NCBI RefSeq assembly: GCF_004010195.1
Contig: NC_057734.1
Coordinates: forward strand, 9,655,441-9,719,440
Origin: Chiloscyllium plagiosum
Taxonomy: Eukaryota
Direction: 5' to 3'
Length of the DNA stretch: 64,000 nt
In this document: positions 17,954 to 57,392 of the stretch, piece after piece
How positions within the stretch are numbered: the first letter of the stretch is position 1
Layout: the number at the start of each line of letters is the position of its first letter
Translations under genes and position numbers: made by a program
The notes under the pieces: model-generated
Told to the model about the DNA's origin: nothing
The model's database searches: none
Seen by the model: only the letters and a program-made list of their open reading frames with translations

Positions 17954-18589
17954 TCTGTTGGAGTTAAGTGAGGTAATGGTTGTTCTCCTGGAAGACAGCT
18001 CCCAGGTTCACTCTGAGCAACAATTGGCCAATTCAGGGGTGTGTGGAAAATTGGTAAGAGGCATAAATTACATCTGGGAGGCTGGGAGGAAATTCTCTGA
18101 CATGCATATAACAGTCACAGGCTGCAAGTCAAAATGATCATCATGATCAACTTCTTGAGGCTGATGATCCACTTGAAGAAGTGAACTGGCCCTTTGTGAT
18201 GTATTTTCTGATCCTATCCCCCAACCCTAAAGAGACTCCAGGGGTAATATCGATGCCCCTTCCTGAAGAGACATGTTGCTGATGCTTTGAGTGACAGGTT
18301 CACCTCTGCCAACTTTTCATCCTGGAGCGTATGTTGTTGCGGTTGTTTGCAATTTGGCCTTCTTGCGTTTGCCCTGTCTCTTTGTTCACAGACAATTAAA
18401 AACAATAAATTATTAAACCCTTTCCAAGGCAAACTCTGATATCCAGTTCACAGTTAGAGGAGTCATAACAAACAGGCAACGTTTGCGTGAACGAGGAGTT
18501 GGAACTAAGGTAGATTTCCTATAAACGCACAATGTAAAGTAAGCACAGAGTGTCTGTCACAAATAAGAATACGTTTGTACATAACAGAT

Positions 18590-23989: not shown

Positions 23990-24500
23990 ACCAAAAGAAC
24001 TACAGATGCTAGAAATCAGAAACAAAATCAGAAATTGCTGCAAAACTCAGCAAGTTTGGCAGCATCTGTGGAGAAAAATTGGAATTAATATTTCAGGTCC
24101 AGTAATCCTTCTTCAGAACTGATGATGGGGGGGGAGGGGCTAAGGAGGAAACAATAGGTGAAGGGAGAGCCCAAAGAGAGAGAAGACCAGTTGGACAGAC
24201 AAAGGAGTGGAAAATGGTCAGCCTGGGAGAATAAAGAGCTGTTAACGGTGAATAATGGATTGTGGGCAATTGCAGACCACGGGATAATGAGGCCTGGTGT
24301 ATGGGGGTAGGGGGAAAGTGTGGGGAAGGAGCTCTAACCCTAAAATCAATATTGAGTCCAGAAGGCTGCAAGGTCCCCAAGTGGAAAATGAGGTGCTGTT
24401 CTTCCAGCTTGCACGGAGCTTCACTGGAACGCTGCAGCATGCCTGAGACAGATGTTAGCCGGGGAACGGGATGGTGTGTTAAAGTGGCAGGTAACTGGAA
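23990..24500 (-). mobile_element. Penelope-like element fragment (related subfamily)
   Basis: Minus-strand LEEQHLIFHLGTLQPSGLNIDF, a PLE C-terminal motif, plus a related terminal repeat. Confidence 0.7.
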
Positions 24501-24707
24501 GCTTAGCAGAAGCCCATCTTCGCAGACTACCTACGTTCTGTCCAAAAAAAAAATCCTGAGCTTCCCATTGCCTGCCACTTCAACAGACCACCTCCTCACC
24601 ATCTCCTTAAACGGAAGACCTTTTAGTTTGAAACTGTTCCCCCAGGTCTAGGTGTCCCATGTGGGGAAGCATGCTCCTGACATCTTCCTAGTTAAGCCCC
24701 CTCACAG

Positions 24708-25125: not shown

Positions 25126-28100
25126 TTTTCTGCCTAACTTCAGGAAAAATCAATGCATATCCCATGGAGTAAAGGCCTTGACAACCGAGAACAGGGATTC
25201 CCTTTCAACTTGGCCACTGTGTGACAAGTGGACTAGGCACCCATGTTCACGTAGAATCCTGCCAGATTTGTCAGATGGAAAGCAATGATTACCATACCCA
25301 CCCTGTCTCACTATTTCATCCGAGGTGTTCTGTGGGAGATTGCATGAAGCTGGTGGAAACTCCCTTACCATCCTCCATCTGTGAATCCTACCATCTCTTT
25401 ATATTCAGATGACGAGATAGTCAAAGTATTGGTTTGACCATCACATCACAAAAACAGTACCTCCAACAGTGCATGGTTTGCGTGAATAGCTCAGAGGACA
25501 GTGGCATAGCTTCACAGTACCAGGAAGTACCCAAGTTCAATTCTGGCCTTGGGTGACTGTTGTGTGGAGTTAGTACATTCTTCCTGTGTCTGCATAGGTT
25601 TTCATCAGATGCTCCAGTGTCTAAAGTTGCGTAGGTTAGGTTGGTTGGCTGGCTGTGATAAATTATCCATAGTGTCCAGGGATGTGTAGGCTAAGTGGAA
25701 TAGCCGTGATAAATCTGGATTATGGGGTAGGCAGCTAGGTCTGGCTAGGATGCTCTTCAGAGGGTCAGTACTGACTTGATGAGCTGCATGACCCCTTTCT
25801 GCAATTCTTGATGAAGGGCTTACGCCCGAAACACACTCTTGCTCCTCGGATGCTGCCTGACCTGCTGCACTTTTCCAACACCACAGCTTTAGGTAATGTA
25901 GGGATTTTACGATAGTAAAAGCTCACCTGGTCCAAGGCAAGTGGAATCAAAAATTGGCTTAATAATAGGAAGCAGCGAGTAATGTTGAAGGTTGTAGTGA
26001 CAAAGCTGGTGTCTGATGGAATACTACTTGATTTAGTGCTGGGTCCCTTGCTGTCTGTAGTGCACATTAAATGATCGGAGCACAAATATAGGATGCTTGA
26101 CAAGTGAGTTTGCAGATGACATGAACATTGACAGCATGGTAAATAGTAAGGATGAAAGTCTTAGCCTACAATATATATTGGTCGGATGTGAAAAAGGAGT
26201 GGTAAATGGAATTTTATTCAGAAATTATGAGACGATGAATTTTGGGAGGATTGATAATGATGTCTCTGGGTGATAATATCAGGTTCAGCATAGAACTGAA
26301 TGCCATCAGGACAAATCTTAACACCGTTTCTCTTGATCCCTCCACTGTCACACTTCCTGCCAACATGCAGTAGCTGGAAATTCTTGCTCATCCAGTAAAC
26401 ATAGAGAAGACTTTAATTGAAACTATTGTCTTTTATTCGTTAATCGAAAGAGCAAAGGGGAAAAAAACTTCACAGAACTCTTTCCCACCCTGCCTCAGAA
26501 CATTTCCTCATCCATGGCATTGTTACCTCCATTCTTTTAAAAGAAAAAAGTTAATTCCTTCTGCACCTCCTCCATCAAACACTCCCAAAGCAGATACAGC
26601 CCAGGGTTAGATAGTAAAGACCCCTCTATTCATTTGAACAGAAAGTAAAACCCACTGCAATCTTTCAGACTAAAGGTAACTGAAAAGTAAAGCTCCTTCC
26701 ACTCTTTACTCCCCACTTAAAAGTTCCATTGATATTGTCCCCCCCAAAACTCCCAGGACAGAGACATGTTACTTCTAGTCTGGACTATCCAACATATTCC
26801 AAGATTAGGTCTCACCTTCCAGTTTACATAGACTTGTGCTCATCCAGTCTCTGCAGTCCATATCCACTAAGTTTTCACGAATCACTTTTGTGCTAGCAGA
26901 GTTATATTAGACAAGCAGGAGGCTGGGAGAACGCAGTGAGCCAGGCAGCATCAGGGAGGTGGAGAAGTCAACATTTTGGGTGTAACCCTTTTTCAGGACT
27001 GGGGGTGGGTGTAAGGGGAGCTGCAGATAAAGGGGGTGGGGGGGCAGGGTGGTAAGGTGGGGATGGGTGAAGACAGGTAGAGGGTATGACCTGGTTGGTC
27101 AACACGTTAGTCTCTAGCTGAGTTATGTTAGTTCTCAGTGCAACAATACCTCAAATGCAATACCCACTTACCTGTTTGGAACAACCTCCATGGTCTTACC
27201 CTTAAAACCAAAGTCTCTGCATTCCTCCAATTCTGGCATCGTACACTTTGATCTCTGCACAACTGGCAACTGTGCTTTCGTGTGCCTCGATTGTAAGCTC
27301 AGACTTAAATATTTACAGCACAAAAGGAAGCCATTCAGCCCATTGTGCGCTTACCCACAAATATCTGACTAAACAGGCCCCATTTTCTATTTCTTAGCCC
27401 ATAGCCCGGAGGGAAACAAAGGAATATCTGAATACTGCTTAAAATGTTGGAGAATTTCTGACTCAACCACCCTTTCAGGCAGTAAGTTCTAGACTACAAC
27501 CACCCTCAGAGAAAAGTAGTTCTCAATTCTCAGCTTAGCTTTCTACCTCTTCTCCCACTATGGTTATTGACTCTTCTACCAGTGGATAGAGTGACTTTCC
27601 TATCCACCATAACTTTGCAACACAAATTGCTAACCTGAAATGGCTGTGCCAGGGCTATTTGAAATTTACAGTGCAAATTTACCTTTTTTTGGACTCTGGA
27701 TAATTGTTGGTGAATCCCATTTGAGAAGAGTGCTGCAATTTTATAGCAATTTGCAACTCCATGTTTTCCTGGTCACAAATTGCCAGGCTTTCCATACACA
27801 TAATAGGCAGTGCTGTGCTCATCATTATTTTTCTGACAACTGTAAACTCTGAACGGTAAATTTATTTTTAATGACCAATTACTTGAAGAGTCAAATTATT
27901 GCTCACCATAAACTGGAAGAACCAGTCAAACAGCAGAACTGTCAGCAAACTTCGATAAGGCATCAGATTGTAGATTCATGACTAGGGAACAGCAGGTGGA
28001 AGCAGGAGGTCACTACAAATTGATAGCAAACTGGTTACAGCAAATTAAAAGAATATTTGAGGGAGAAAGGAAGAGAGTTAGGTGAAGATAGAGAAACTTT

Positions 28101-29383
28101 CTGTTCAGCAAAAACACCATCAGCATTTCATTGGATTAAATGCCACATTTGTGTTATAAATGTTATGCAAATTAGCAGCATCTACCCACCCACCTACTTA
28201 ATAACCAGAGGCACTTCCATCCTGAAGTGCCTCTGGTATATTTTGATTCTTTGCTGTTGTTATGGGAACAGTTATTTAAGGATAGAGATTTCCTGATAAA
28301 ACCTGGGATATGCACACAGAATGGCACAGAGCAAGAAACTTAAAGCTATGCTTTCTGGGAAATCCTGGAGGTTAAAAAACAAGTTGACAGCTTCTTGTTA
28401 TTGCAAGCATCGCTAGAAAGGAAAGACAGATTGTTAAAATATTGGCATCATTGCCTGAATTTATTGACATGTGGCAGCAGTTGAGTAATCTCAAGCTATT
28501 TTCCAAAAAAAAAACTTACTTTTGACCATTTTGAGGTTTATATGGCTGTGGGAAGTGGAAGGGGCTAGGTCATTATAGAGTGGGCAGTACAGAGAGAGAC
28601 AGTTTTGATGTTAGTCAAGGGTTATTGTTCACTGGGCTAGCTAATTCATACCTCAAAACAAATATTTTCTTCTGGTTGTGGTAATCCAAAGTAACAATAT
28701 ATAATCCCTTACTATAACCTCTGACCTATGGCTCACTGGTGGTACTCACTTCTCAGGAAGAGGAAGTTGGGTGTTGGTGCCTCGCTTCAGTGACCAGAGC
28801 ATAATTAGATCAATATTTCAGTTGCATTATCAGAGGTGGTGCCTTTTGGATGAGATACTGAATAGAGACACCATGGATAATGACGACAACGACCATTCTA
28901 CAATAACGTACTCCAAGACCAAGAGATCTCTCAGCATTTAATTCTCAAGCAACCTTTAAATCCTCAATCAATATTACACAAAGCAGCTTGTCCTTTATCA
29001 CGTGCACATTTGAAACCAGACTTGAAACATTCAGCTTCTTTATTATCTTAGCCCAAGATATCATGGCAGCAGCTCCTCAGGGTAGCATTCTCAACCTAAA
29101 CATCTTCAGCTGTATTAATGAACTCCCCTCCAAAAATGGTAATTGCACAGAATGTCCAGCAGAATTCTTGATTTCTCAGATGCTGATGCATGTATCTGTA
29201 TGCAACAAGACCTGGACAACATTGAGGCTTGTGCTGCTAAGTGGCAAATAACATTTATGTCACACAAATGATGAGCATTGACCATCTCCAACTACAGGGT
29301 ATGACCATTATCCCTCAACATTCACTGAATTCTGTCCCCACTAGCTCAACAACTCAACATCCCAGGTGTTAACCAGAAATTGA

Positions 29384-29580
29384 GGAGAAAGTGAGGACTG
29401 CAGATGCTGGAGATCAGAGCTGAAAATGTGTTGCTGGAAAAGCGCAGGTGAGGCAGCATCCAAGGAATAGGAGAATCGACGTTTCGGGCATAAGCCCTTC
29501 GCTTATGCCCGAAATGTCAATTCTCCTGTTCCATGGATGCTGCCTGACCTGCTGCGCTTTTCCAGCAACACATTTTCAGC
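29384..29580. mobile_element. Fold-back Penelope-tail element inserted in an old LINE, 15-bp TSD with 2 mismatches
   Basis: Inverted arms with central deletion; TTAACCAGAAATTGA (29369-29383) versus TTGACCTGAAATTGA (29582-29596). Confidence 0.8.
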
Positions 29581-30270
29581 ATTGACCTGAAATTGAACTG
29601 GGACCCACAGTATTTATTATGGCTGTGGTCAAGAGCCAGAGATTAGTAATACTACAGCAAGCAATTCACTTGACTCCATTTACCATGTACATCAGCTACA
29701 AAAGCACAAGTCAAGAATATAATGGAATACTTCCTACATGGCTGAAGAAGAGTGCAGCTTCAACAACACTCAAATTCAACACCATCTAGAACAAAAGGAG
29801 AATGGGAGGACTGCAGATGCTGGAGATCAGAGTTAAGAGAGTGGTGCTGGAAAAGCATAGCATGTCAGGCAGCATCCGAGGAGCAGGAGAATCGATGTTT
29901 TGGGCATAGCCCTTCATCAGGAATGAGGCTTGTGGGCCAGGGGGCCAAGAGATAAATGAGAGGTGGGTAGGGTTGCAGGGCAGGGATGGTAGTATAGAAA
30001 GCGATAGGTAGGTGAAGGTAAGGGAGAAGGTGAATTACAAAGTTAATATTTGATGCATCAAGTCATATTACCCAAATATTGTACCAATCTGGGTGATTAT
30101 AGTATTTCTGTCCCCACTAACCATCTAAAAATTAATGATATCACAAGCAACATAACCATTCCAACCATTTCAGTTCTAAAATGTTAGACATTTATTAATA
30201 CTGTGTACACTTACTGAACAAGTGATTAAAGACAGGAAAGTATAAATGATTTTTAAAAAAAAAATAAAAG

Positions 30271-34056: not shown

Positions 34057-35746
34057 CTTTAAGAAAATTTATTTTGTATTTTTTTCTTGAAGGAAATTTC
34101 ATCAAGAAATACAATATTTTGGCAGAACTGCTCCCCCCTCTCCCCTGCCAAAGGGACTGTGCTGTGCCAAAGGGACTGTGCTGGTTTCCAGATCAACTTG
34201 CAAACTATGAACCTTTCCTTACTAAAAGCAGTGTACCAGCTGTTTTGATGTCAAGTTCTATAATGGTTCTGTGAAGTGCATTGCAATAAGAATATTTCAC
34301 TATGTAAAATGCATGTTACTAGAGTTTTAAATTTGTAATAAATAGCAGAGACGTTAGAAATCATCATTTTCTCCCTGTTATAGGTTTTCTAAGTGAGTTG
34401 CTGCCAATCTGTTCACATTTGCTATCAACAAGGACCTCTTGCATGTGATGGCATTGTGCAATATCACTGAACTAGACCAGTAATCCAGAGGTCCAGGCTA
34501 ATGCCTTATGGATACATGTTCAAACCCATCATTTGGATTTAAATTCAGTTAAGAATCCTAGAATAATTCTGGTAACGTCTTTGGACTAGTAAACCAGAAT
34601 ACCTAACCAGTGCCCAGGGTTCAAGTCCCACCAAGGCATATAGTGAAATCAGAATCCAATAAATGGATCTGGAATTAAAAGTCATCTTCATGGTGACCAT
34701 GTAACCACTGTCAATGGTAGTAAAAACAGTAATGACCTTTAGGAAGGAAATCTGCCATCTTTGTGTTGTTTGGCCTGCATGCAATTCCAGACCCACAGCT
34801 GGTTGGCTTTTAAATATGCAGAGACCCTTCTTCAGAACCATGTCTGTCAAATCTGCTGAGTTTCTCCAGCAATTTCAGTTTCATTAAACAAAAAAGATAA
34901 TCATTGTTGGTCATGAAAATCTATATCTGGTTCACTAGTGTACTTAAGGGAAGGAAATTTGTTCTTGGCTCACCTGACTTACCTGCAAATTCTCAAAACG
35001 TGCCATGAAGTGGCCTAGCCAGCTACATATTTCAGGGGCAACAAAAAGAAACTAATTTTAGTCCTACTATACAGAATATATTAAAATAAACAAATAGTAA
35101 TGCTAATAGTTCGCTGGGTTTTTTTTGTGGTGCAGTGGGTAGCGTCTCTGCCTTTGAAAGGGAGCATCTCGGCTCAAATTTCACTTCAGGATTTGACAGT
35201 AAAGGATGGTCGATTAATAATGCCACCAAACAAGATAATGTTAGCATCACTGTCTACAGCTCGAGGCTACAAGGAGTGCTAAAACACACGTTGTCACAGC
35301 AACAAAAACACCTCAAGGAACTGGTTGGCTAAGTTGGCTATGCTGTCAGCATGGGAAAGGTCAGTGCCAACTACATAGCATTCATTCTCCAGCTGTGGAG
35401 GATTTGGGATCTGTTTCTTCACCCTACACATTGTTGTTGGCCTGTAGGTCAGCCCAGCCTTCAGGCAACTTAAAATAAATATTGGTTCCTGCACCACAAT
35501 GCAGAAGTAGTAAACAGTAAAACCTGCTTATCAAATAACATATACTGGCGAATTCAAAATGCAGAACCACTACATTTAATTACATTTTTTTTTGAAAATC
35601 TGTTTTCTTTCCCCTGGGTAGTCATTTCTGCCAAAGATATTTACTGTGTTTAAGCAGAATCATTTGAGAACAAATGTAAATGCCTCCTCCCCTTTCCATC
35701 TGTTAAAAGTTCAATTTTCAATCTGGGACATCCACAAGCATGCTAC

Positions 35747-35907: not shown

Positions 35908-36358
35908 CTAAAAATAGAAAGAAAAAAGCTAAACATTTAAACACAGTCAGGATGCATGGGAAAAAAAACAAAGAACACTTCAGGCAAACTTTTCATCCTA
36001 GCTTACAAAAGTACAGATAAAAGAGACTTAAAATGGTTAAAACCATGAGTCAACCAGACAGTTAATGGAATGATCTTTTAAACACTTCATAGAAACAGAT
36101 TAAATGGACAAATTGGTGGTAACTTGTGACAGTAGGAGACAATAATACATGTATTAAAAATAAGTGTGAATTTTCTTCTCATTATCATTGTTCTATCCTT
36201 TTTAAAATACTACTCACCTGTAGATCCCTACAGTATGGAAATGGGCCATTTAGCCCATCCAGTCAACATCGACCCCCCTTCCCCACAAAGACCATCCCAT
36301 CTAGACCCACCCTAGTACCCTATCCCTGTCACCCTGCATTCCCCATGGCTAATTTACC

Positions 36359-36617
36359 CCAAGGAAAAAGGCTGTCACTATCCAATCCTCTGATCATCTT
36401 GTATGTCTCTATTAAGTCACCTTTCAACCTTCTCTCTAATGACCTCCAGTCCCTCAGCCCTTCCTTCCATACCTGGCAATATCTGGGTAAATCTCCTCTG
36501 CACCTTTCCAATGCTTCTGCCACCTTGCTATCGTATTTGTGCATTATTGGAAATCTAGTAGCTTTTCTGGTTTGAAATAGGTGATTGTATCTAAAAATCA
36601 AATCTAATTTGGTATCC
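36359..36617 (-). repeat. 259-bp inverted copy of 37574-37832, flanked by a 57-bp direct repeat (36302-36358, 36671-36727)
   Basis: Reverse-complement match with about 2 substitutions; mirrored ORFs 36329..36601(-) and 37551..37865(+) in the track. Confidence 0.95.
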
Positions 36618-39209
36618 CTCCCAGATCCCTTTGTGCTTTGGCTTTATTAATTTTCTCACCATTCAGAAAGTAGACCCACCCTAGTACCCTATCCCTGTCA
36701 CCCTGCATTCCCCATGGCTAATTTACCTACACATCTCTGGACACTATGGGCATAATTCAAAGATGTGCAAGTTAAGTGGGTTGGTTAAGAGTGGAAACTG
36801 GAATACTCAGGAGGAAATCCATTCAGAAGCAGGCAGAATGTGTCAAGCTTGCTCAATCAATCAATCAGTTGCCCATGGAACCCAGATGCTGTGAGGCAGC
36901 AGTGACAGCCACTAGCCCCTATTGACAGTGGTTGTCCTGGAATGGGAACTTTTTCCTGTTAATTAAAAAAGACTAGCTGTTGCTGCCATCAAATGGCAAA
37001 TCAAAAACAATATCCAATTGTTTTTCATGGAGAGCTACAATGAAAAAAATTCAAAAAACCAAATAGATATTGTTTTTGTACAAAACATTTCAGACTGTGG
37101 TGCCCAACGTTCAAACAAGACCTCAAGCAGGATAACAGTCGCCACTTGCTCCTAAAGGATTATCTGGGCACAGAAAATGCTGCAGAATATAGACAGGCAA
37201 CCAGAGTAATCACCACAACAGCTTACACCCGAGCAGCTGGTAGACACTTTGGTTGGGCCCAGAGCACACTCGACAGGCATCTCTAGCCCTGCCTAAAGTC
37301 CTATACTGAAAAGTACGAGACTGGAGTGCAGCCATTTGATACATATATCCCTCATTAATGAAACATAGGTGCAGAGCTGGACCATGGACAGATGCACACT
37401 ACAAAAGTTACAGGCAGCTTGGGAGTTAATGAAGTTACTTCAAATCTTTTCGACCGAATTGCCCTATGCAATACTTCCACTAAAAGTACAGTGGATGCTT
37501 CCAGCAATTGATCATCAGCCACATCTCATTATTGGATTCAATATCAGAGAGTGGAGAATGCAGTTTTACTCAAGGATACCAAATTAGATTTGATTTTTAG
37601 ATACAATCACCTATTTCAAACCAGAAAAGCTACTAGATTTCCAATAATGCACAATTACGATAGGAAGGTGGCAGAAGCATTGGAAAGGTGCAGAGGAGAT
37701 TTACCCAGATATTGCCAGGTATGGAAGGAAGGGCTGAGGGACTGGAGGTCATTAGAGAGAAGGTTGAAAGGTGACTTAATAGAGACATACAAGATGATCA
37801 GAGGATTGGATAGTGACAGCCTTTTTCCTTGGATAGTGATGCCTAGCATGAGGGGACAGCTTTAAATTGAGGGGTGATAGATATAGGAGAAATGTCAGAG
37901 GTAGGTTCTTTACTCAGAGTAGTAAGGCCATGAATGATAATAGAATAGTAGAAGTTAGATGGGCTTCAAATGGATTTCACAAGTCGGGTGCAGCACTGAG
38001 GGCTGAAGGGCCTGTACTGCGCTGTAATGTTCTTTGAGAACAAAAATTTGCATCCTTCAACGATTCATGTATTGTGCTCACGAGATGGTGAGGATATAGA
38101 AGTAGAAAAGAAGTAACTTCCCTGTTGTCCACATGCAATAAGAAATGGAAAGATTTGATTACTGAACAGATTCTTTTTTTTAAAAAAGAAATTGCAAAAG
38201 GGATATTTTTTGTTGAACTGATCCAAGGTTGCATTTTGTTAGTTGGGAGCAGCTTTTATTGCCCATTTCTATTGGTCATTACATGTGCTTTCAAATTAGT
38301 GACAACTAAGCCTTAACTTTAAAATGAACTGCATGATGGGACAAGAGATGATATTTATCAACAGTTAAGGATATGAGACAGGATTCAAAAATACAGAGCT
38401 GGAGATTTCCAAATAGAAGTATGGACATTAAAAAAATCAGAGCCTTTAAAACTCTTGCACAACCTCATCTCAATTTTTAAAAAAAAATGTTAAATTCATA
38501 GGATATGGTCTTTGCTGGTTGGGCCAATAGTTAATGTCCATCCCTTATTGCCCTTGAAGGTGGTGGCAAGTTGCGTTCTTAAGTCACTGCAGACTATTTG
38601 GTGCTGTACATATACCCACAATATTTTAGTCAATGAAGGGCACTTGACAAGGCAAATATTTTGTGCAGAGCAAAATCCCAGAAACAACAATGTAATATTG
38701 ACCAGACAATTTGTTGCGATGTTGATTGGAGGATAAAATATTGGCTTGTGCACTGGGATAATTCCCTTGTTGATATTTAAAATAATGCCAAAGTGATTTT
38801 TTGTCTACCTAAAAGGACAGACAAGGCATTGGTTTAACAGCTCATCTGAAATATTGCATCTCCAACAAAGCAGTGCCCTCTTATTACTACACTGATGCTT
38901 CAACTTTGTTTTATTTAAATTTTGTGCTCTAAGACCTCAATGCATAAATCGAATTACCAGTTCTATGTTTTACTGGCCATTTTAAATGGAAGCAGCTGAA
39001 ATGTATAAATCACGTAAAAAATACAGATTAAAGGGATGAGGATTTAGACTTATTATACATGTTTATCACTCAGATTTTCAAATAATCGGTAGACTAGCTT
39101 AAGAGAGTCACAGCATTCAAGTCCCCACCTGCTCCAGAGGTGAGTCGTAGCATTTCTGAACAGGTTGATCAAACATATCTAGAAATGTTTCAATTCACTG
39201 AGTTGCTAC

Positions 39210-39319
39210 CTTGATAGGTCTTTGACCAGGCTCTGCAGCTGAGAGAGAAGATGATAATGCTGTTCCTGCTGCTTAGCAATATCCGCTGGCTCTTTATATA
39301 CCTCTACAGTTTTATTCAT
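39210..39319 (-). CDS. DGCR6: DGCR6 coding exon 1 (110 nt; an in-frame upstream ATG at 39334 is an alternative start)
   Basis: MNKTVEVYKEPADIAKQQEQHYHLLSQLQSLVKDLS resembles the DGCR6 N-terminus (QQERHYQLLS.LQSLVKELP). Acceptor tgttttag precedes 39390; donor AG|GTAGCA. Confidence 0.85.
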
Positions 39320-40193
39320 CTTCAGATGTTTCATGAGGAAATCATCCCAGTAGTAAGATACTAGTTTCTTTCAAATAGGAATGCCCACTCCTAAAACAGA
39401 GATTTAAAAATAATTTCTAGTGTTGTCAAGAACACATGGTCAAAGACTTCATTGTTAATTTTTTACAAGAATAGATTTTTCTCTTTTGTAATTTAACATA
39501 TTTGACACAACTACATATTTGCACTCTTATCGCATGTAGAAGTGAATTGCCTTACTAATCCTTCTGTGGCCCAAAAATTGTAATGCAGAGACCAAAGGAG
39601 AATACACTTTTAGTTCAAAACATCCGGTTTTCTATCCACACCACCTCCTACCTTAACTAATTACCAAGTTAACTATCACACCACCATTTAAGCCACATGC
39701 CACCCAGACAATGAAAATTATTAGCTGTACCCCTTGCCACTCACTTCTGAAACTGCAAACTAAAGCTCAGGTTGAAAGAGAGAACAACTGTACTTCACAT
39801 CAGGGCAGCATTCAATCAGAAACAATACTAATGAGTTCAAGCAAAATTGAAGGAGATAGACCAAAGAGGGAAAATCACCCCAAGGCTGGAGTTACACCAG
39901 ACACATGGGCAAATAACAAATCAAAAAATCTGACATCATAGTGAGGGATTCATTCTTCATTATTTGAGACTTCAGTAGAGATGTTTTATTGGCTGTAATA
40001 TAAAGTTTGGTTGCAGAGTGGAAATGTAATTATTTTCACCATTTGCCAGATGAGACTTGAATTCCTACGGGCCTGACAATTTATTATCAAAACTGCATCA
40101 TGTGTACATGCTGGCCATTACAGTACTCAAAATCTAAGCAAGGTGCATAAACTCCTCTACAATGCAAATGGATTAGATGCAGAAGCAAAGTTA

Positions 40194-40409
40194 AAAATGT
40201 GTTGCTGGAAAAGCGCAGCAGGTCAGGCAGCATCCAAGGAGCAGGAGAATCAACGTTTCGGGCATAAGCCCTTCTTCAGGAATCCTGAAGAAGGGCTTAT
40301 GCCCGAAACGTCGATTCTCCTGCTCCTTGGATGCTGCCTGACCTGCTGCACTTTTCCAGCAACACATTTTCAGCTCTGATCTCCAGCATCTGCAGTCCTC
40401 ACTTTCTCC
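40194..40409. mobile_element. Fold-back element made of two inverted Penelope-type tails, 14-bp TSD
   Basis: Near-perfect inverted arms centred ~40282; CAGAAGCAAAGTTA at 40180-40193 and 40410-40423. Confidence 0.88.
40280..40317 (+). ncRNA. Minimal type I hammerhead-ribozyme-like motif
   Basis: GAATC-CTGAAGA-A-GGGC(TTAT)GCCC-GAAA-CGTC-GATTC: intact core, 4-bp stem II, 5-bp stem I, palindromic ACGT in place of stem III. Activity is untested. Confidence 0.55.
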
Positions 40410-40510
40410 CAGAAGCAAAGTTAGGCCACTCAGCCCATTAAAAGCAGACTCAATGAGATCATGACTAATCCTCAACTTCACTTACCCCACAACTCAATTC
40501 CTTTACTAAT

Positions 40511-40675
40511 GGTAGCAAGTTGTGAGAAGATTTGGAGCTCACATTGAGGTTCTGGATGTAGGTTTGCTTGGACCACCAGTGCTTCATCCTGAGGCTCACT
40601 GATGATGTTACCTACTATGGTGACAAAACATCTGAATCCAAACCTTCCAGCTCAGCGAGCAAACCTACATCTAGA
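40511..40675. mobile_element. Short partially inverted element from the second Penelope family tail, 12-bp TSD with 1 mismatch
   Basis: Shares sequence with 24708-24830; TCCTTTACTAAT (40499-40510) versus TCCTTTACCAAT (40676-40687); CTGATGA-T-GTTACC/GGTGAC-AAAACATC at 40599. Confidence 0.7.
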
Positions 40676-41163
40676 TCCTTTACCAATTTTAAAAAAAAGT
40701 CAGTCTTGAATATGCTTCACAAGTCAGCCTCAAAAGCCCTCAGCAGTAAAGAATGTCACAATCCTCAAGAAATTCCTCCTCAGGTCTCTCCTAACTAGGC
40801 AACCCCTTACCCATTTCGTTCTAAACTCTCCCACAAGGAGAAACAATCTTTCCATATCTACCCTGTCAAGTCACTTAAGAATTCTGCATGTTTCAATATG
40901 GTCACCTCAAATTCCAATGGGTACAGGTCCAACCCTACACAGTCTTGTTTTGAGACTCATTACAGTGCACAAACCAGCTGTCCTTATTCTGACATCATGC
41001 CAGCAAATCCACTTCAGAAAGAGTTATGGAGTACTTCCGGATATCCCAATATTGTGAAAGGCACTACATAAACCGAAGTTCTTTCACTTGATAAACCATT
41101 ACTTACAACTGGCACATTACAGATACACACATCAGTTGAGTCAAGGCAAGCTGTATCACCAAT

Positions 41164-41291
41164 GTTAAAAATCACAACACCAGGTTATAGTCCAACAGAT
41201 TTAATTGGAAGCACTCCTGTTGAACTATAACCTGGCGTTGTGTGATTTTTAACTTTGTACACACCAGTCCTACACCGGTATCTCCAAATCA
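41164..41291. mobile_element. Short fold-back element of a third family, 12-bp TSD
   Basis: GTTAAAAATCAC-AACACCAGGTTATAGTCCAACAG is inverted as CTGTTGAACTATAACCTGGCGTTGTGTGATTTTTAAC; TGTATCACCAAT at 41152-41163 and 41292-41303. Confidence 0.75.
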
Positions 41292-41929
41292 TGTATCACC
41301 AATAGCCATCACATGATCTATAGTCTGGAATTCTTATAAACTGGGGGACTGGATTTACCCAATACATTAGTAAACAATAAATTCTTTGGATTTAGGGTTA
41401 CCACTCTGGTTACATGCAGTCCTGGGGATTTGACCCACTCAAAATGATTTTTTCTCTCTATCTCAGGACATGTGACAATAACAAAATCACATCAGGACCT
41501 GCTACCACCCCTAGCCAGACAGCCTTATTTCCTACTCCATCACTAATACTTTAAGTTTATAGTGTTTAAAAGAGCATTTTGAAAAGGCCACGGTTCCTGT
41601 TTTCTCTATTAGCAGTGGTTACAATAACAGGCAGAACCCGGGGGTAGGGGGGAATGACAGAGCAATCCAGGAGGGTTAGCAACACAGATTCCTGATTAAA
41701 TTGGTGCGAGTCAATGACTCTGCTCAATATTAGTACAAGTCACACAATGCAAACTAAATCAAAAATAAAAACATATCACCATTCTGCACCCTGACTCAAT
41801 CCTTAAATAATACAGCTACATAAAGACGGAGTTATACCATAAAGTGAATACTTTCCGCTTTCACACAAAGGAGAACATCGCTCAATAGAAGTCACATTGA
41901 TTGTTTCAAAGTCAGAATTTGTTTTTTGT

Positions 41930-42310: not shown

Positions 42311-44077
42311 GAATGACCTGGAGATGAAGAAAGTTTATTTTTTCAGAGACCGCTGGCCGTGAAAGGGAGTTTTGATATAGGGTTGGCTGATTGCAGTTAT
42401 TATTAATGAACCTACTCAGATATGTTATTGCATAACTACTATTGCATCACAAGAATCCATTGGTTGAGGTGAATTTTTGCTCTAAAGGGTATAATTGTAA
42501 AGGCAATGACTGGGGTTATATATAGGCACAAGTGTAGGCCATTCAGCCCTTTGATCCTGCCCCTCCATTCAATATGATGACGGCTGGACAAACACTTCAA
42601 TCCCTTTAAACCCATTCCATAATTCTGAATGTCACTAGTAATCAGAAATCTGTCAACGTCCACCTTAAACATCCTCAAAACACTGAGCTTCCACAGTCTT
42701 GTGTACTACCAAATTCCAAAGGTTCACAACTCTCTGAGTAAAATTATTTTGCCCCATCTAGGTCCTTAGTGGAATCTCCCTTATTTTTAAATTCTGCTCC
42801 CTGGTTCTACGCTCTCGAACTACTGCACAACTCATTGTAAGTGACAGGACAGGTTGAGAAGGTGTTTCATAATCCATACGGTGTGACCTGTGCTTTCTCA
42901 ATAGAGGCATTGAAAAGCAACGGAGTTAGGTTAAAATTGTAGAAAATACGGCGCTCGGCTGGAGTATTATGTCCATGTCTGGACACCATACTTTAGGAAA
43001 GATATAAAGACAGTGAGAGTGCAGCAAATGTTCCTTAAGTTCCAGGGGTAAGGACCTTCAGTCACATAGATTGGAAAAGTTGGGACTTTCTTTTAGAGAA
43101 GGTTCAAGGGAGATTTAATAAAGCTACTCAAAGACATGAGCGTTTGGCAGTTTAGTTAGGGACAAAATCCCACTGATGGTAGGATTAAGGACAAGAGGGC
43201 ACAATCTGGAATGTGCTGCATGGTGGAAGCTGGCTCAATCGATATTCAAGTGGGAATTAGATTATTATCTGAAAAGAATGCAGCACTTTGGAGAAAGTTC
43301 CTCAGATGTGATGATTTGATGGCTTCCTGTGCTGAAACCATTCTATGGTGCTGAAACAGTAGGCTGGATGGATGAGGGCCGAGCATCAAGTTTAAGCTGC
43401 AATTTGTTTTACTGAGCAAGTGCAAATCCCCAGAAGCAAAGCAATCCCTTCCACATTTGTAGGGTTTAAGGTGATTAGTCCACTTTGTTTCTGGAGGGAA
43501 CATTTCTCACGAATGAGCAGGATTGCTTGCTTCTGTTGTAAGTGCAACCTTTACCTGGAGGTTGGCTACTCTCCATTCCCGAGGCTTCTGATGAAGGGCT
43601 TTGGCCCAAAACGTCAATTTTCCTATATCTTGGATGCTGCCAGACCTGCTGTCCTTTTCCAGGACTACTCTAACCTTGACTCTAGTCTCCAGCATCTGCA
43701 GTACCCACTTTCACCATGTCAGGGCCCTTGTTTGCCCTAACCTTGTTTAGTAAGAATCACACTGATTGTGACTGGGGCTGAATAGCCTACTGTTGTTTTA
43801 TGTGAGTTGGAGCATAGCAGCGGTTGAGGGTGCTGTCCAATGCAAGCTGTTCTGTTGCACCTGATTTATTCTACCATTTGTAAATCTTTCCAGTCTGGTA
43901 GGAACAGGAGTAGACCATTCAGACTATTGAGTCTTTTTAAATGCATTTTGATTTTTATTTACTATTCCTGTTCCGTTTTTTTGGACACCATTTGTAGCAG
44001 GAGACCTAGGTTCAGGTTCTACCTGTACCAGAGATGTGTAATAACATCTCTGAACAGGATGGTAAGAAAATGTCTTT

Positions 44078-45355: not shown

Positions 45356-47644
45356 GTAAGCAATGGTTTAGGCAGAAAGTATTTGGATTCGCATGTATTA
45401 AAGTCATTCATTGTGCTTTCTGCTCTGGCGTTCCACTGTAGCCTGTTAGTCCTGCAGTCAGCTGCTTGCTGCCAGTCCATCTGACTCCCAGCTATTGCCA
45501 TGTCTCATAGATTCGCTACAATGCTTTATACTGTAAAGGGTTCGACCTGGTTTAATTCTGTAAAGTATCCAGCAACTACGTGTTTACATCGCACATTTAA
45601 CATGACGCTGCCCCAAGAAGCTTCAACAAAAAAAAATGCATGTTCAGAATATTGCTATTGACTTGTGCTGTGAACTTGGTTTGTAAGTGGCATCTTAAAA
45701 CAAAGGAAAGAGAGATGGTGAGGTTCAGCGAGGGAGTTCAGCAGCTTAGGACCCTGCTGGATGAAGACCAATTCTTTCTACTTTTAAAGGGTAACCACTG
45801 TTGAGAAAGTGGTGTATGATAAAAATACAGACAAAATAAAGAGGGAAGGGCACTTTATCATCAATGTAACCACACTGTGTAAGAGGATGCCATGACTTGA
45901 AGTACCTTGAGGTGTTGTAATTGAACTTGTAACTGAATGATGCTCTTGAGAAATATATTTCAGTAAGGTGCCACCATGCTGTTTGGATTTGAAGTTTTTA
46001 TGCATTGTATATTCATTTGAGGGTTTTACTCTCAGCATTTTACTTTAAAAAACAGCTTATTCCCTGCTGTTGTCAGACTTTTGAACAACCCTCTCCTATA
46101 TTAGAGTTGATCTTTCTTTGCATCTTCACTGTAGCTGTAACGCTACATATTCTGCATTCTTATTTTATCGCCCTGATGTACTTGTGTAACGTATGATTCT
46201 CATAATAATAATATCAAATAATAGAAGATACCTGAGCTCAGGTTTCCCATTAAATCTCACTCTTTTTTTTAAAGCCCTCCATTTTGAACAAACTTTCACT
46301 TGCTTTTGTTATCTGTTTCTTTGGTCCAGTCTCTACTACTTTCATGCATAAACGCCTGTAATTGGTGTTTTGACCGTGTTTGTGACTGAATGATATGTAT
46401 GAATGCAATACCATAGTTGCTACCATGGATAGGTTAAAAAATGTTTGTAACTATCGTAAGTTAAAATCATGCCTATATTGTGCACACATGCATAATGGCA
46501 CATGTTTGATGTGCTGTTACTAACACTGGGTGGGCTGGTTGCTTGCTAAGAGTTTATTTTGATCCTGGTGTTTTTAAAAAATTAGCTACCATAGCCGCCT
46601 TATGATTTGAGTGAAACTGAAGTGTAATACCCTTTTATAATAAAACAAATCAAGACTTTTTAAATAATAAGAATTGTCATATTAAGGAAAAGCAGCTTAC
46701 TATAGATGCTGAAAATGTGAAGTATGAACAAAAGATTGGAAATAAACAGCAAGCTAGGCAGGATTTGCTGTAGAGAGAAACAGAATCATACAGCATGGAA
46801 ACAGACTCTTTGGTCTAACTAATGCCTGATGAAGGGTTTATGCCCAAAATATCGATTCTCCTGCTCCTCAGATTCTGCCTGACTTGATGTGCTTTTCCAG
46901 TACCACACTCTCAACCCCCAACTTATGCATGTCAAGTTTCCCAAACTAAACTAATCTCATTTGCCTGCATTTGGCCCATATTCCTATAAACGTTTCCTAT
47001 TCAAGTACCTGTCCCAATGTCTTTTAAATGTTGTAACTGTCCCTGCATCTACCACTTCCTGTGGCAGTTCATTCCACACATGAACCACCCTCTTTGAGAA
47101 AAAATTGCCCCACCAATCCCTTTTTAAATCTTTCTCTCTCACCTTAAAATTATGTTTCTAGTTTTGAATTCCCCAAACCCAGGAACATCAATATTTCGGG
47201 TTGGAGCCCTTCATCATTTCCTGATGAAGGGCTCCAGCCTCAAATGTCGATTTTTCCTGCTCCTCCGATGCTGCCTGACCTGCTGTGTTTTTCCAGCAAC
47301 ACAGTCAACTCTCATCTCCAGCATCTGCAGACCTCACTGCCTCCTTCTTTATTAATCTGTCTACCTGTGAAACAACTTGCAATAAATAATGTTCTTGAAA
47401 CCCCTAGGTCTCTCTGTTCTACAACACTCCCCAGGACCTGACCATTAACTGTGTAAGTCCTGTCCTTATTTGCCTTTCCAAAATACAACACCTCACGTTT
47501 ATCTAAATTAAACTCCATCTGCCACTCCTTGGCCCAATTGATCAAGATCCCTTTGTAATCTTTGATAACATTAAATAGGTAACATTTCATATGAATTACA
47601 TCCCTTCAACTAGTTCCACAGGTGCTGATTAATATTTTAAGAAA

Positions 47645-48791: not shown

Positions 48792-49304
48792 TTTGGCACC
48801 AAATGTTTCACAATCCATATCATTCACCTTGCAGAGTAGATATGATATATGGCAGTCTTTCGAGTATCATCTGGGATGAATTAATCTGTGAATAAATAGG
48901 AGTTTGTGCATGCAGAATTGTCTGAAAGCAGGGTGAGAATTTTCATTCTCTGCCCATTACAGATTCGAAGTTAAAGGTCTGTCAGGCAGACCCTGTGTTT
49001 AATCTATTCATGTCTGAATGGATGCTTCCAGTTCTACAATAGTACCCTGCCTACAACACTGACTCACATTTACATAGCACCTTTAACTTTATACAGTACC
49101 CCAAGACACTTCACAACAGAATTATGAAACAAAATTTGACACTAAAATGTCAAGGAGTTAGAAGAACAAGTGACCAGATGTGTGCAAAGATCAAAGTGTT
49201 AAGATTTAATGTGTGCGGTGAGGTTTAGTGAAGGAATTTCAGACTTCATACCTAGGCAGCTGAATGCATGGCTGCTAAATGTAGAGTGATCAAAATTGAA
49301 AATG
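48792..49304 (+). repeat. 513-bp direct duplication, copy 1
   Basis: Matches 51187-51699 (offset 2395) with only a handful of substitutions. Confidence 0.95.
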
Positions 49305-51186: not shown

Positions 51187-51699
51187 TTTGGCACCAAATG
51201 TTTCGCAATCCATACTATTCACCTTGTAGAGTAGATATGATATTTGGCAGCCTTTCGAGTATCATCTGGGATGAATTAATCCGTGAATAAATAGGAGTTT
51301 GTGCATGCAGAATTATCTGAAAGCAGGGTGAGAATTTTCATTCTCTGCCCATTACAGATTCGAAGTTAAAGGTCTGTCAGGCAGACCCTGTGTTTAATCT
51401 ATTCATGTCTGAATGGATGCTTCCAGTTCTACAATAGTACCCTGCCTACAACACTGACTCACATTTACATAGCACCTTTAACTTTATACAGTACCCCAAG
51501 ACACTTCACAACAGAATTATGAAACAAAATTTGACACTAAAATGTCAAGGAGTTAGAAGAACAAGTGACCAGATGTGTGCAAAGATCAAAGTGTTAAGAT
51601 TTAATGTGTGCGGTGAGGTTTAGTGAAGGAATTTCAGACTTCATACCGAGGCAGCTGAATGCATGGCTGCTAAATGTAGAGTGATCAAAATTGAAAATG
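51187..51699 (+). repeat. 513-bp direct duplication, copy 2
   Basis: Matches 48792-49304. Confidence 0.95.
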
Positions 51700-52660: not shown

Positions 52661-55600
52661 ATGGTTTTCTGCATAGCGCACTGCCAGTGGATGAGAGGAC
52701 ACAGTCTGTCATGTCATCAGTGCAGCCAACCATGTATTCCATGTTTTTGGGTCTGCAGTGTGAAATTCTGTAGTATCTCTACAGACTTTGCAGCTTCAGC
52801 TGGGAGAATTAGCTGGCATCCATCAAATTCTTCAGAGAGATGTGACCCCTCAGTGGAAAAAATGCTGAGCCTCTGATTGATTCAACCATCCGTTCCATTG
52901 TACATAGCATTCAGTGTCATCCACCTCGGCACACATTTCCATAGTTGTCTCTGCCAGAATTTCCATGCCATTGTGCTGCAGGTGAGAGAAGAGCCTGGTC
53001 TTTGCATTGGTTTTCCTCACCCCAAGCTTCTTCTCAGCATGGCGTGTTCGAACTAGCATGGCAGCATTGGCAAGTGTGGGCTCCCTCCCCATCTTCCCAC
53101 GCAGTCAACTGAGAGAATGTGCAACACCACACAGACTGTTTCCCTGGAATCAAACCCAGGTCCCTGGTGCTGTGAGGTAGCGGTACTAGCCACCATGCCA
53201 ACCCGAATTTCCCAGGGAGATTTTGATTTCAAATGATTCCTTTTTCATGCTGTAGTATGGCCTAATTACACTTAAATTAATTGGTACAAGCATATGGCTA
53301 CTAATCTGGATTTTCTGAAATTTTGGCTTATTACAGGCATTATTTTGTTAGACTTTCTATCCTGCTGGTGAGAATAGCTGACTACTTTGAGACAACCAGA
53401 ATTTTGGGTAATCCAAATTTGACTGAGGGGGTGATCTTATAGAGGCTTCTAAAATCATGAGGGGCACGGATACGGTAAGTAGACAAGGTTGTTTCCCTGG
53501 AGTGGGGGAACTCCAAAACTAGAGGGCTTGGTTTATGCTGAGAGAGGAATGATTTAAGAGGTCTAAGAGGCAACTTTTTCATGCAGAGGGTGGTGCATGT
53601 ATGGAATGAGCTGCCAGAGGGAGTGGTGGTACACTTACAATGTTTCAAGGGCATCTGGATGGGTTTATGAATAGGAAGGGTTTTGAGAAATACGGGCCAA
53701 GTGCTGGCCAATGGGACAAGACTAATTTAGGATATTTGGTCCGCATGGATGAGTTGGACCCAAGGATCTGTTTCCCTGCTGTATATCACTATTGCTGGTT
53801 GCAGTTTCACTGAATGAATTAGATATTCCAGCAGCCACAGCAGGAATGTAAAAGCAGTTTAGCTTGAAGTAAACTAGAGTCTGGGGTACACCTAGTTGCA
53901 CAAGACATTCCGCTTACCAACTGAATGCTTTGGGTATTGTGAAGAGGAGGCTTCCACAAGTGCAGTTTTCCAGCCTGCAGTAAATAGTTGTGGTGAATTC
54001 AGCTTTCATTCCTAAAACATCACAAAGCTTTTCTGTGTGCTAGGTGGTTGCTGTCCACTAGGGAGAGCCACAGCACATTTAAAATTGTACAATGACAGAA
54101 TCATTACAGTAAGACATCTTTCTAAACAAAGGGATATAAAATGCCCTTTACTTGTTTCCTTTATCAGAAATAACCTAACCATTCATCTCTTGGGCTGTAT
54201 CTCACTTGGAAGACTATGGGATATTCTCATACCAGTCTGTTTTGCAACAAACACCCTGGTGTTTCCTTAAATCTTCTCCATTGATTGTGATCACAGGCTT
54301 AGGAAGGTTATTTGTTTGTTAATTGATCTTCCCAGCTGTACCTTGAGTCTTCCCATTGTGGTACCCAGTTATATGTCTTAAGTTGTTTATGCATACAGCA
54401 ACAACTTACATTTATATAATGTCATTAATAGCACAAAAACATCCCATGGCACTTCATAAATGACTAGTCCACTGCCTGACTTCGAGGCTACTCATTATTT
54501 TAACCTCTTCTTATGTGAATATGTCGAGGAGTCTTATCAAGGAAGACTTTTTCATTGGTAGTTTCAATCACGGTCTACGTGCCTTTTTTTTTGATAAATG
54601 TAAATGTTTACTAAGGGACAAAGTACCTGCGTACAATTATTAATGGCACTGTCAATCATTAAAAATTTCTTTTTGTCTTGTGAGCCTATCAGCACTTATA
54701 CAAGATGAAAGAGCAGATAGAAGACAATTAAATATTCTGTCAACTGTGATAAAAGGATGACTTGTTATAATAGTTGTGGAATCATGGGATTTGTTGCATG
54801 CTGGCATACTATGACCATAGGCAAGAAGTATGGTCAGTTGAATTTGTACTGGAAGATGCTTATACACTCAGTGAGCTGATCCTCCTAGTCATTGATGAGT
54901 CTGCAGAAGTAAGCAATAGAACATTCTGGGATTGAAAGGAAAGAGCTGAGTTTACTGCAGATTGTCAGCTGGGTGTGCACAGTGGCAGATATAGCTAGCT
55001 TCTCTTTGGGAAAGCAGAGGTTTTTGTTTTTGCTGTAAAATATGCATTTTCTAGCATGACCCTTTTTTAGGTTGGAAAATCCAGGAGTGGGAAACAGGCC
55101 TGATTTTTTTTTTCTTTTAATCTGATTCTCTCCCTAGTGTCCTGGCCAATAGTTATCGTTCAATAGATTGCACATTATAAAATATCTGTGGGTGCTTGCT
55201 GTGAACAAGTTGACTGGGACATTTTTTATATTGCAACAATGACTAATACTTCAAAATGCTCAATTGCCTGTAAAAGACTTTTGCAACATCTTAAATTAGT
55301 GAACAGCATGATATAAATGTAAGTCTGTTTAACAGTAGCTTGTCTATCAGAATGTCAGCATTTAGCCTGTTTGGTATACTTGATAAATGTGTAAGAAAAC
55401 CATTTCCCCTTTTATGATATAAACCTGCTCTTTGGAAAGGGCATAGCTGCGTAAAATGTCAAGCACTTTTCTTGAATAAAAACAGAAAATGCTAGAGGAA
55501 CTCTTCAAACTCTTTGAGGAGTCAAATTGCACCTGAAATATTAACTCTGCTTTCTTGGTAGATGCTACCAAACCTGCTAGATTTTCCAGCATCTATGTTT

Positions 55601-56759
55601 GCTTTTATTTGAACTATTTCCTTGTCCTACTTTGTGATTTTTGACTTAGTTTGCATTTGTCAGCGGTGCTATAGAAATACATGTTTGTTTTTGCTCGTGC
55701 TGAGGCTTGAAAGACCTTTTTGTTCAAACATCAGTACAATTTATTCCAAACAAATTTTTTCTGATAGCGAGATTTAATAAAATCTGCAATTTAAAGTTGT
55801 ATGGGATTAATGGAATATATAAGGAGATCAGGGAAAGAATGGAATTTGATTTCATGGGCTTATATTGGAAATTATGTCCACGTAACTGCTTTCTGAAGAA
55901 GAGGGTAAAGTTTCTCTTCAAAATAAATGGGACTGTCTTATAAAATAACCCAATCAATTTTGCAACCAATCATAGCATTTTCTTTCAATGTAAGAAGCAA
56001 AATTGTTGTTTGTTTAATATGTACTGCTTTTCCTCCCCTATTAATACTTATTAAAATTCTGCAGTTCTGGTCTCCCTACTATAAGAAGGATGTTGTGAAA
56101 CTAGGAAGCCAGGACTTTGAGCTATATGGAGAGGCTGAATAGACTGGAGCTATTTTCCCTGGAGCATTAGAGGCTGAGTGGTGATCTCATATTGGTTTAT
56201 AAGGTCATGAGGGACATGGAGAGGGTAAATAACCAAGGTCTTTTCCCCAGAGTAGGGGAGTCCAAAACTAGAGGGCATAGGTTTACAGTGAGAGTGGAAG
56301 GATTTAAAAGGGACCTAAGGGGCAATGTTTTCACCAAGTGGATGGTGTGGGTATGGAATGAACTGCCAGAGGAAGTAGTGGAGACTGCTACAATTACAAT
56401 ATTTTATTTTAAAACACCATAAGCTTATGAAACCAACATCAAAGGCTTAAATTAATTAAAAGTAGCAAATCCACAGTGGAGAAAGGAAGTTTTACCATAG
56501 CATCACGTAAAACCATGACCTGGCTTCTGATCCAGCCGAGCTGAGTACGTACATCTCTTGTCCTTTTTAAAATATCCTAATCTAATGCACATTGATCAGT
56601 CTCATTCCAGTTTTCAATGGGCATAAATCACACTGCAAGAATTTTTAAAAAGATGATGACAATCTTATTCTAACAGTTTGAAAGATGGCTGAAGGATGTT
56701 TCCCTGTCCTGGATGCTGAGGCACATGTTCAGAGCAATTACAGACCGTTCTCTGTATCA

Positions 56760-56966
56760 GGAGAAAGTGAGGTCTGCAGATGCTGGAGATCAAAGTTGAA
56801 ACTTTATTGCTGGAACAGCACAGCAGGTCAGGCAGCATCCAGGGAACAGGAGATTCGACGTTTCGGGCACAGGCCTGAAGAAGGGCCTGTGCCCGAAACG
56901 TTGAATCTCCTGTTCCCTGGATGCTGCCTGACCTGCTGTGCTGTTCCAGCAATAAAGTTTCAACAA
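56760..56966. mobile_element. Fold-back Penelope-tail element, 14-bp TSD
   Basis: Inverted arms; CGTTCTCTGTATCA at 56746-56759 and 56967-56980. Confidence 0.88.
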
Positions 56967-57392
56967 CGTTCTCTGTATCAACCTATGCTATATATCACCT
57001 GGGATTACTGAGTGTTGACACTGTGTGTTTGAAAGGGGAAATGTTTCTTTTGCTAGCACAAACATTACTTCCCTCCAGTGTTAAATTACCACAACATGTA
57101 AATTGACGGAAGAAAATTAAATCCCATGTGTGCTTTACAAACTTATAGGAGGACATTTTCTAAATTGAATGCAGCTCCAGTATTTAACATTACTTTAAGG
57201 CTTTCCTGCATCTACTGATGCACCAGATAGACTGAGCACGTGCTTATATCGGCTTTCACACAGAGTTATTTGTGAAACAGGTTTCTAAGTTGTCATTGAC
57301 TTAGTGTTATTAGGGAGAAGAAAGTTAACCGATATCAGCACATATATGTTGGTTTGTCTAATCTTTCTCATTTATTGTTCCTTTATGTCTAG

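Follow-up and report, generated by a model that had tools for sequence, protein, structure and literature searches.

EN+ units of Penelope-like elements (PLEs) are the closest described counterparts of the insertions considered here. Their general scheme is given in PMC8557442 (Fig. 2), where inverted 5'-truncated copies and a one-sided tail of 30-40 bp are presented as general PLE features, and a 34-bp repeat has been reported for Drosophila virilis (PMC2377424). An insert with adjacent inverted end pieces (pLTRs), a 31-bp tail on one pLTR and target-site duplications (TSDs) of 8-10 bp is described in PMC3846280, and the Adineta vaga units Pen2a, Pen2 and Pen3a of the same report have head-to-head inverted pLTRs, a one-sided tail, a TSD round the unit and a short overlap or palindrome at the junction. 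The purified protein of PAc (Poseidon, Anolis carolinensis), a predicted dimer, cuts and extends both strands and starts reverse transcription (RT) at two adjacent internal sites, the spacing of which corresponds to the tail, according to PMC11167929. Minimal hammerheads of metazoan PLEs were described by Cervera and de la Pena (2014, PMC4209133), including, in Schistosoma, oppositely oriented pairs with 100-700 bp between them and numerous solos derived from truncated PLEs. Non-LTR retrozymes, which are likewise short, non-coding, hammerhead-bearing and derived from PLE pLTRs, are described as tandem arrays of head-to-tail units that each contain a hammerhead (PMC7229834; bioRxiv 10.64898/2026.07.22.740005).

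The window analyzed here, a 64,000-nt stretch of Chiloscyllium plagiosum DNA, contains four fold-back insertions (loci A-D; Table 1) of 150-220 bases, each with two head-to-head copies of a PLE end piece. The arrangement is that of the Adineta vaga units, including the TSD round the unit and the short overlap or palindrome at the junction, with a tail of 34-39 nt against 31 bp in Pen2a and a TSD of 14-15 bp against 8-10 bp in the rotifer (PMC3846280). Unlike the PLE units as they are depicted in these sources, the shark fold-backs have no ORF or host DNA between the pLTR copies, their 5' ends are concentrated at the hammerhead front, and their abundance is very high. The fold-backs themselves are ordinary PLE debris, the described PLE signature in a body-less minimal form, and the novelty that the sequence-only reading of this DNA had considered does not extend to the architecture, since inverted pLTRs, a one-sided 30-40-bp tail and a TSD are all described for PLEs (PMC3846280, PMC8557442). 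It is highly probable that they are truncation-inversion products of PLEs, and the overall explanation that we favor, and regard as likely, is that they are body-less PLE insertions, i.e., head-to-head end pieces within TSDs, built anew at each insertion by two-sided priming.

Table 1 Coordinates of the fold-back insertions and related PLE copies in the window
Feature	Positions	Strand	Remarks
Locus A, whole	17786-17968		153-bp insert between 15-bp TSDs; without complete core
Locus A, TSDs	17786-17800 / 17954-17968		15/15 match
Locus A, short arm	17801-17888	-	
Locus A, long arm, rearranged	17887-17953	+	
Locus B, whole	29369-29596		without complete core
Locus B, TSDs	29369-29383 / 29582-29596		15 bp, 13/15 match, 2 mismatches
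Locus B, long arm with tail	29384-29500	-	
Locus B, short arm	29501-29580	+	
Locus C, left TSD	40180-40193		14 bp; exact 14/14 repeat
Locus C, short arm (tail-less PLE end piece)	40194-40281	-	
Locus C, short-arm minimal hammerhead core	40252-40279	-	descriptor scan; predicted GUU site
Locus C, long arm	40283-40409	+	tail at 40371-40409
Locus C, long-arm minimal hammerhead core	40285-40312	+	predicted cut between 40312 and 40313
Locus C, right TSD	40410-40423		
Locus D, whole	56746-56980		separate tail sub-lineage
Locus D, TSDs	56746-56759 / 56967-56980		14/14 match
Locus D, long arm with tail	56760-56874	-	
Locus D, short arm	56875-56964	+	complete core at 56875-56902
Locus E, whole (unrelated second tail family)	41152-41303		
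Locus E, TSDs	41152-41163 / 41292-41303		12 bp
Locus E, short arm	41164-41215	-	
Locus E, long arm	to 41291	+	38-nt tail
Locus F, decayed fold-back, same family as A-D	47180-47345		CTGATGA type
5'-truncated PLE copy	16640-17614	+	degraded RT-EN linker and GIY-YIG, then tailed end piece; 5' end approximate
5'-truncated PLE copy	14036-14598	+	end of EN region and tailed end piece
5'-truncated PLE copy	29797-30033	-	~240 nt, with tail
Solo end piece with tail	43588-43715	+	begins at core
Solo end piece with tail	63512-63632	-	begins at core
Solo end piece, tail-less	46822-46915	+	begins just before core; weak 9-nt direct repeat
Solo end piece, tail-less	25798-25894	+	begins 4 nt before core
Solo end piece, tail-less	7342-7480	-	~40 nt of body; weak 10-nt direct repeat; upper bound approximate

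Fold-back insertions and their parent element

The sequence-only reading had proposed four insertions, each consisting of two inverted copies of a PLE tail between TSDs of 14-15 bp, and all four are located where it had placed them. Two inverted copies are present in B, C and D, with arm identities within the copy of 72/77, 86/88 and 79/80, respectively; A is only a partial fold-back, in which the long arm begins ~37 nt beyond the start of the core and is rearranged internally by a duplication and a deletion. Locus C folds into a single predicted hairpin (z = -24.5), and none of 200 shuffles was equally good. The TSDs are perfect in A, C and D and imperfect in B, for which a search allowing one mismatch gave 12 nt with a score of 9. 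As the same repeat search at 150 random positions gave no score higher than 10, the TSDs of A, C and D are beyond chance, and that of B is only suggestive by itself, leaning on its position as well. No clear target consensus emerged across the five TSDs. One arm does stop short of the true end, by 34 nt in A, 35 nt in B, 39 nt in C and 35 nt in D rather than by the 25-35 nt given previously, so that the tail is found on one arm only. Exactly one tail is present in all five of the measurable fold-backs (A-E). Two fold-backs had been overlooked: locus E, belonging to a second family, and locus F, a fifth member of family 1 with a short arm cut to ~36 nt and a private helix-II variant common to both arms. 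A TSD search at locus F found none. The end pieces of family 1 amount to 2.95% of the window.

About 190-220 nt separate locus A, and likewise locus B, from the tail end of a neighboring body-bearing PLE copy (17614-17801 and 29581-29797). With two fold-backs out of four so close to such a copy, local targeting is weakly suggested.

The arms are 77-86% identical to the last 125 nt of the three body-bearing copies, in agreement with the earlier assignment of the arms to the tails of GIY-YIG fragments, although the sub-lineage is a different one. The core type is CTGAAGA in fold-backs A-D versus CTGATGA in the three body-bearing copies, and therefore the exact parent of A-D is not in the window, which holds no body-bearing copy of the CTGAAGA lineage. 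Different tail sub-lineages are represented among A-D as well, D being 84-86% identical to B and C. The body-bearing copies at 14036 and 16640 are 76% identical over 617 nt. The GIY-YIG stretch of the latter is 82% identical over 83 aa to P0001, a predicted RT + GIY-YIG protein of Chiloscyllium punctatum (3 matches among 42 candidates), and the window frame 16624-17178 reads VIYCICCSRCGLLYIGETG, which fits an EN+ PLE insertion unit. The match of P0001 itself to the GIY-YIG profile is weak (E 2.5e-4, below the curated cut-off), and a Pfam search with five degraded PLE frames of the window gave no match. No RT is retained in the PLE copies of the window; the relatives P0001-P0003 carry an RT of the YIDD type, P0003 matching RVT_1 at E 1.9e-5, below the cut-off. 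The linker motif is CYLRNCKVC in the window frame 16611-17375 and CHRRNCKTC in P0001, and CX2-5CxxC in the RT-EN linker defines the Neptune and Nematis clades (PMC8557442). These sequence comparisons identify the arms as the pLTR of a GIY-YIG PLE with a Neptune/Nematis-type linker and, presumably, an RT like that of P0001-P0003; PAc, in contrast, belongs to the Penelope/Poseidon clade (PMC11167929).

Being short, non-coding and bounded by inverted repeats and a TSD, the fold-backs also resemble MITE-like DNA transposons, the long inverted repeats of which would then merely look like PLE ends, and terminal inverted repeats of this kind had been named as the finding that would overturn the PLE assignment. 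However, in three window copies the arm sequence runs on into GIY-YIG coding sequence, the two ends are unequal owing to the tail, the position of the short end shifts by as much as 5 nt, and the TSD length varies from 12 to 15; a DNA transposon has practically no chance of being the correct explanation.

The end piece (40331-40409 and other tailed copies) contains a frame, beginning with MLPD(L/R/M)L, that stays open up to the element end in six of nine tailed copies. This frame may be the start of an ORF, as in other PLEs; protein searches with it gave no matches and then two unrelated, repeat-inflated ones. One more candidate fold-back, at 25786, was suggested by a BLAST look; its upstream part is other sequence, and it was classed as a solo.

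Hammerhead core and arm starts

Hammerhead-like cores had been ascribed to all four fold-backs, which proved correct for C and D: a complete minimal core is carried by three of the eight arms of A-D, namely both arms of C and the short arm of D, and A and B have none. Three matches to the hammerhead descriptor (40285 +, 40279 -, 56875 +) were obtained in the window, compared with 0.02 per shuffled window. Rfam at the gathering threshold returned 0 matches for the whole window. As a motif only, the core, the extra base before helix II and the loop-less ACGU fit the minimal PLE hammerhead, for which PMC4209133 gives the same core with the extra base between 9 and 10.1, the same G10.1-C11.1 pair, a loop-less palindromic ACGU and a short helix I. 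The hammerhead pairs of the shark are located back to back in a perfect hairpin, unlike the widely spaced pairs of that report. Helices I and II are predicted to pair with p 0.96-1.0 in a lone arm and with p 0.0 in the whole fold-back; on this folding model the hammerhead is predicted to be a passenger, buried in the hairpin. In PAc, where a hammerhead likewise lies near the pLTR end, it is dispensable for insertion (PMC11167929).

Counted from core base C3, the predicted cut falls between +27 and +28, and the starts of all 18 family-1 copies or arms are more than 3 nt away from it. Thirteen of the 18 starts are located between -7 and +11 of C3, i.e., ~17-35 nt upstream of the cut, the five outside this cluster being those of the long arm of A (+38), the copy at 7342 (-41) and the three body-bearing copies. 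The starts were picked by hand and depend on the reference (B short arm +10 to +12, D long arm +7 to +15, 46822 -1 to -7), so that, given the alignment doubt, 11-13 of 18 cluster; the corresponding P is 1e-11 or less for an interval chosen after inspection of the data.

These starts bear on the idea, contained in the sequence-only reading, that the copied tail is delimited by the ribozyme. If self-cleavage of the hammerhead set the 5' end of the copied RNA, as in retrozymes, a fitting motif and arm starts beside it would be expected, and both are found. However, the starts cluster at the front edge of the core and not at the cut, no arm starts at 40313 among the 15 joints and 12 inserts listed, and the window is without head-to-tail arrays; in addition, PAc works without cleavage (PMC11167929). 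In the cleavage sense, delimitation by the ribozyme must be abandoned as very improbable. Retrozyme-type organization was not found either, in that all copies are head-to-head or solo, half of the fold-backs are without a whole core, and five of eight arms lack a complete one.

Tailed and tail-less arms share the stop place despite a 35-nt length difference, and consequently the stop is set by position and not by length. Most simply, the template RNA would begin at the hammerhead front edge, the copy ending there by run-off; alternatively, the stop may be caused by endonuclease cleavage at the ATT immediately preceding the core, a sequence that PAc prefers. A splice acceptor behind the 5' cluster was also considered, the intron of D. 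virilis ending at helix I according to PMC4209133, and rejected, as the expected shared upstream exon is absent from the 15 junction contexts.

Older hammerhead-type PLE end pieces of other families are present at 20165-20255, 23997-24530, 26922-27100, 34818-34890, 55485-55620 and 63370-63450. Some of them begin at the front edge of the core, and those at 34818 and 55485 resemble decayed fold-backs.

Centers, empty sites and the route of formation

The centers differ in all five family-1 fold-backs (A-D, F). Among 15 paralogue joints listed (2107 further), ten skip the center, all at different places and with 1-9 contigs each, in a tally that leaves out copies with locus C's own center, as such copies give no joint. 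One joint (X12 40283-40347) contains 12 extra letters beginning as the reverse complement of the upstream PLE body, showing that arms can extend further into the body than those of locus C. Comparison of B, C and D revealed nine copy-specific columns, eight of which set D apart from B and C, and no arm-specific ones. In the tree, from which the long arm of A was left out as too short, the two arms of D pair at 100/99. For A, B and C, arm identity is about the same within a copy (93-96%) as between copies (88-95%). On the 5' side, the tail-less arm extends beyond the tailed one by 33 nt in A, 10 nt in D and 17 nt in E. Neither arm is thus a subset of the other in these loci, which makes simple copying of one from the other impossible and means that a plain snap-back of cDNA would need a further deletion.

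Two origins had been offered for the fold-backs: a self-propagating, non-autonomous hairpin family and a stereotyped abortive PLE insertion. In the former, master fold-backs would be transcribed whole and reinserted by the PLE protein. The likeness of A, B and C (88-96%), their grouping with D apart from the body-bearing copies (93/89), the near-identical centers in other species (X9 record 25 and X12 record 11 cross the center of C with only 3 gap letters) and the location of the window's only three intact cores in fold-backs would all be accommodated by such a family. On the other hand, there are five centers in five copies and ten more among the listed paralogue joints, and the same shape is seen in three tail lineages and a second family; moreover, transcription of such a unit would give a perfect RNA duplex of 90 bp, in which the RT start region and the ribozyme would be inaccessible. 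Neither a shared center nor an arm-specific base, both expected of a self-propagating family, was found in this small sample, and the family is improbable. Stereotyped body-less insertion fits the data, with centers that are variable and not shared, and the balance favors building at insertion, later decay adding to the spread. That most fold-backs were built insertion by insertion is likely.

The spread of centers could also be wholly secondary, if one fixed center at insertion were followed by deletions at the palindrome tip and by homogenization of the arms through conversion. Palindromes are generally unstable, A, B and D are each derivable from a C-type center by one deletion with 0-2 nt overlap, and A and F are clearly rearranged. 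Nevertheless, solo stubs begin at the same place without a palindrome, one paralogue arm extends further into the body than C, and D has a center of its own in spite of its nearly identical arms and perfect TSD. A fixed center is accordingly quite improbable as a full account; later deletion at the tip probably adds to the variation and cannot be its sole source.

Contigs from four public runs (of 21) were compared with window positions 39000-41900, which cover loci C and E. The empty orthologous site that had been suggested as a check was found for locus C in organism B, a related species, where one 14-nt target copy is left: in a contig of 1766 nt (X9 record 24), window positions 39001-40179 correspond to record positions 134-1304 and 40410-40541 to 2-133, with nothing between. 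The shortfall of 230 nt equals the 216-nt insert plus one 14-nt target copy. In organism C (X12), a second relative, the flank contig stops at 40173-40179, short of bridging the locus. In the source species, the flank continues into the element for 22 nt of arm in run X15 (record 21), and the flank contig of run X1 terminates inside the left TSD of locus C. Locus E is empty in organisms B (X9 record 28) and C (X12 record 15), each with a small extra deletion. Hence, fold-backs can serve as clean presence/absence markers between shark species, at two loci here.

Position 40409 is a dominant terminus of the paralogues (1098-1718 loose-ended contigs per run). The summed depth of 3.7-21 million on the element versus ~7-70 in the unique flanks indicates great abundance and gives no copy number. 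Perfect hairpins of ~90 bp scattered over the genome would yield dsRNA wherever they are transcribed. A literature search conducted mainly outside subscription journals found no description of body-less PLE palindromes in sharks, and an entry in Dfam, Repbase or a whale shark library may exist. Pattern scans gave 0 in viral_contigs and, with a 32-nt pattern, 0 each in metagenome_contigs and genome_contigs; the 48 metagenome loci found with a 19-nt pattern had matches of no more than 44 nt, at low identity, and were all treated as chance.

For insertion by two-sided priming, the following scheme can be proposed. A staggered cut of 14-15 nt would provide two 3' ends, priming at the tail end and at the short end, respectively. 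Both cDNAs, ~90-125 nt long, would stop near the hammerhead front edge, most simply by run-off at the RNA start, and the palindrome would arise by joining of their free ends with 0-3 nt overlap and a variable loss of sequence; where only one primer was used, a solo stub would result. The ends of the other copies are as two RT start sites predict, the tail end being found in two solos and three bodies and the short end in three solos. The fold-back copies are probably dead ends. A related process is 5' inversion of L1 by twin priming, in which two target ends prime cDNA and an inverted junction with a short overlap is formed within a TSD. The pieces of an L1 inversion are different parts of the RNA, whereas both shark arms are copies of one and the same 50-90 nt, so that two RNAs or two passes are required.

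As to the route itself, two-primer copying rather than antisense self-priming is about an even call. Self-priming on antisense RNA would form the head-to-head junction before integration, and the endonuclease would resolve it, leaving the one-sided tail. This has been proposed in print for exactly this head-to-head arrangement (Arkhipova 2013, PMC3846280, Discussion); short palindromes are present at the centers of C (GGAATCC) and D (CAGGCCTG), and the constant presence of one tail would be accounted for. The junctions of A, B and E, however, are without a pre-formed stem, and PAc in vitro uses sense RNA with target priming on both strands (PMC11167929), and we consider antisense self-priming rather unlikely. 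If start sites were picked independently and equally, one tail in five of five fold-backs would have a chance of ~1/32, which is a weak hint of coupling.

Tentatively, the stubs could be regarded as PLE transposition intermediates of a two-primer, strong-stop type, frozen in place. The RNA would then start at the hammerhead front, and two RNAs would be held on a protein dimer, possibly via a palindromic ACGU hammerhead dimer, with one subunit always starting at the tail end and its partner at the short end. If this were true, the shark genome would be a very large natural record, sufficient to settle the origin of the inverted pLTRs and one-sided tail of PLEs, which PMC8557442 presents as still open. 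Such minimal, young and very abundant insertions preserve the two target ends, the two RT start points and the junction in a span of no more than 250 bp.

Second tail family and other features of the window

The second family, represented by locus E, has its own minimal hammerhead just beyond the center, as seen from paralogue loose ends. Joints from 40409 to 41173 and 41177, in which the family-1 tail end is connected to the family-2 short end, were found in 71 and 30 contigs, respectively, from all four runs, and correspond either to a recurrent nested insertion hot spot or to an amplified chimera. Two other joints were also common to all four runs: 40408 to 40376, in which the 33-nt tail is repeated in tandem (29 contigs), and 40284 to 40409, with the appearance of two end pieces placed head to tail (34 contigs).

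Several duplications were also recorded in the window. An inverted duplication of 259 nt (99%; 36359-36617 and 37574-37832) adjoins an exact direct duplication of 57 nt (36302-36358 and 36671-36727), and the whole 36302-37832 group is either a recent templated rearrangement or an assembly feature. A direct duplication of 513 nt (98%; 48792-49304 and 51187-51699) has its copies 2.4 kb apart. Finally, two large amino-acid permease coding exons are located on the minus strand, at 11195-12280 (Pfam AA_permease_2, E 1e-33) and 4766-5593, which we take to be cationic amino-acid transporter-like.
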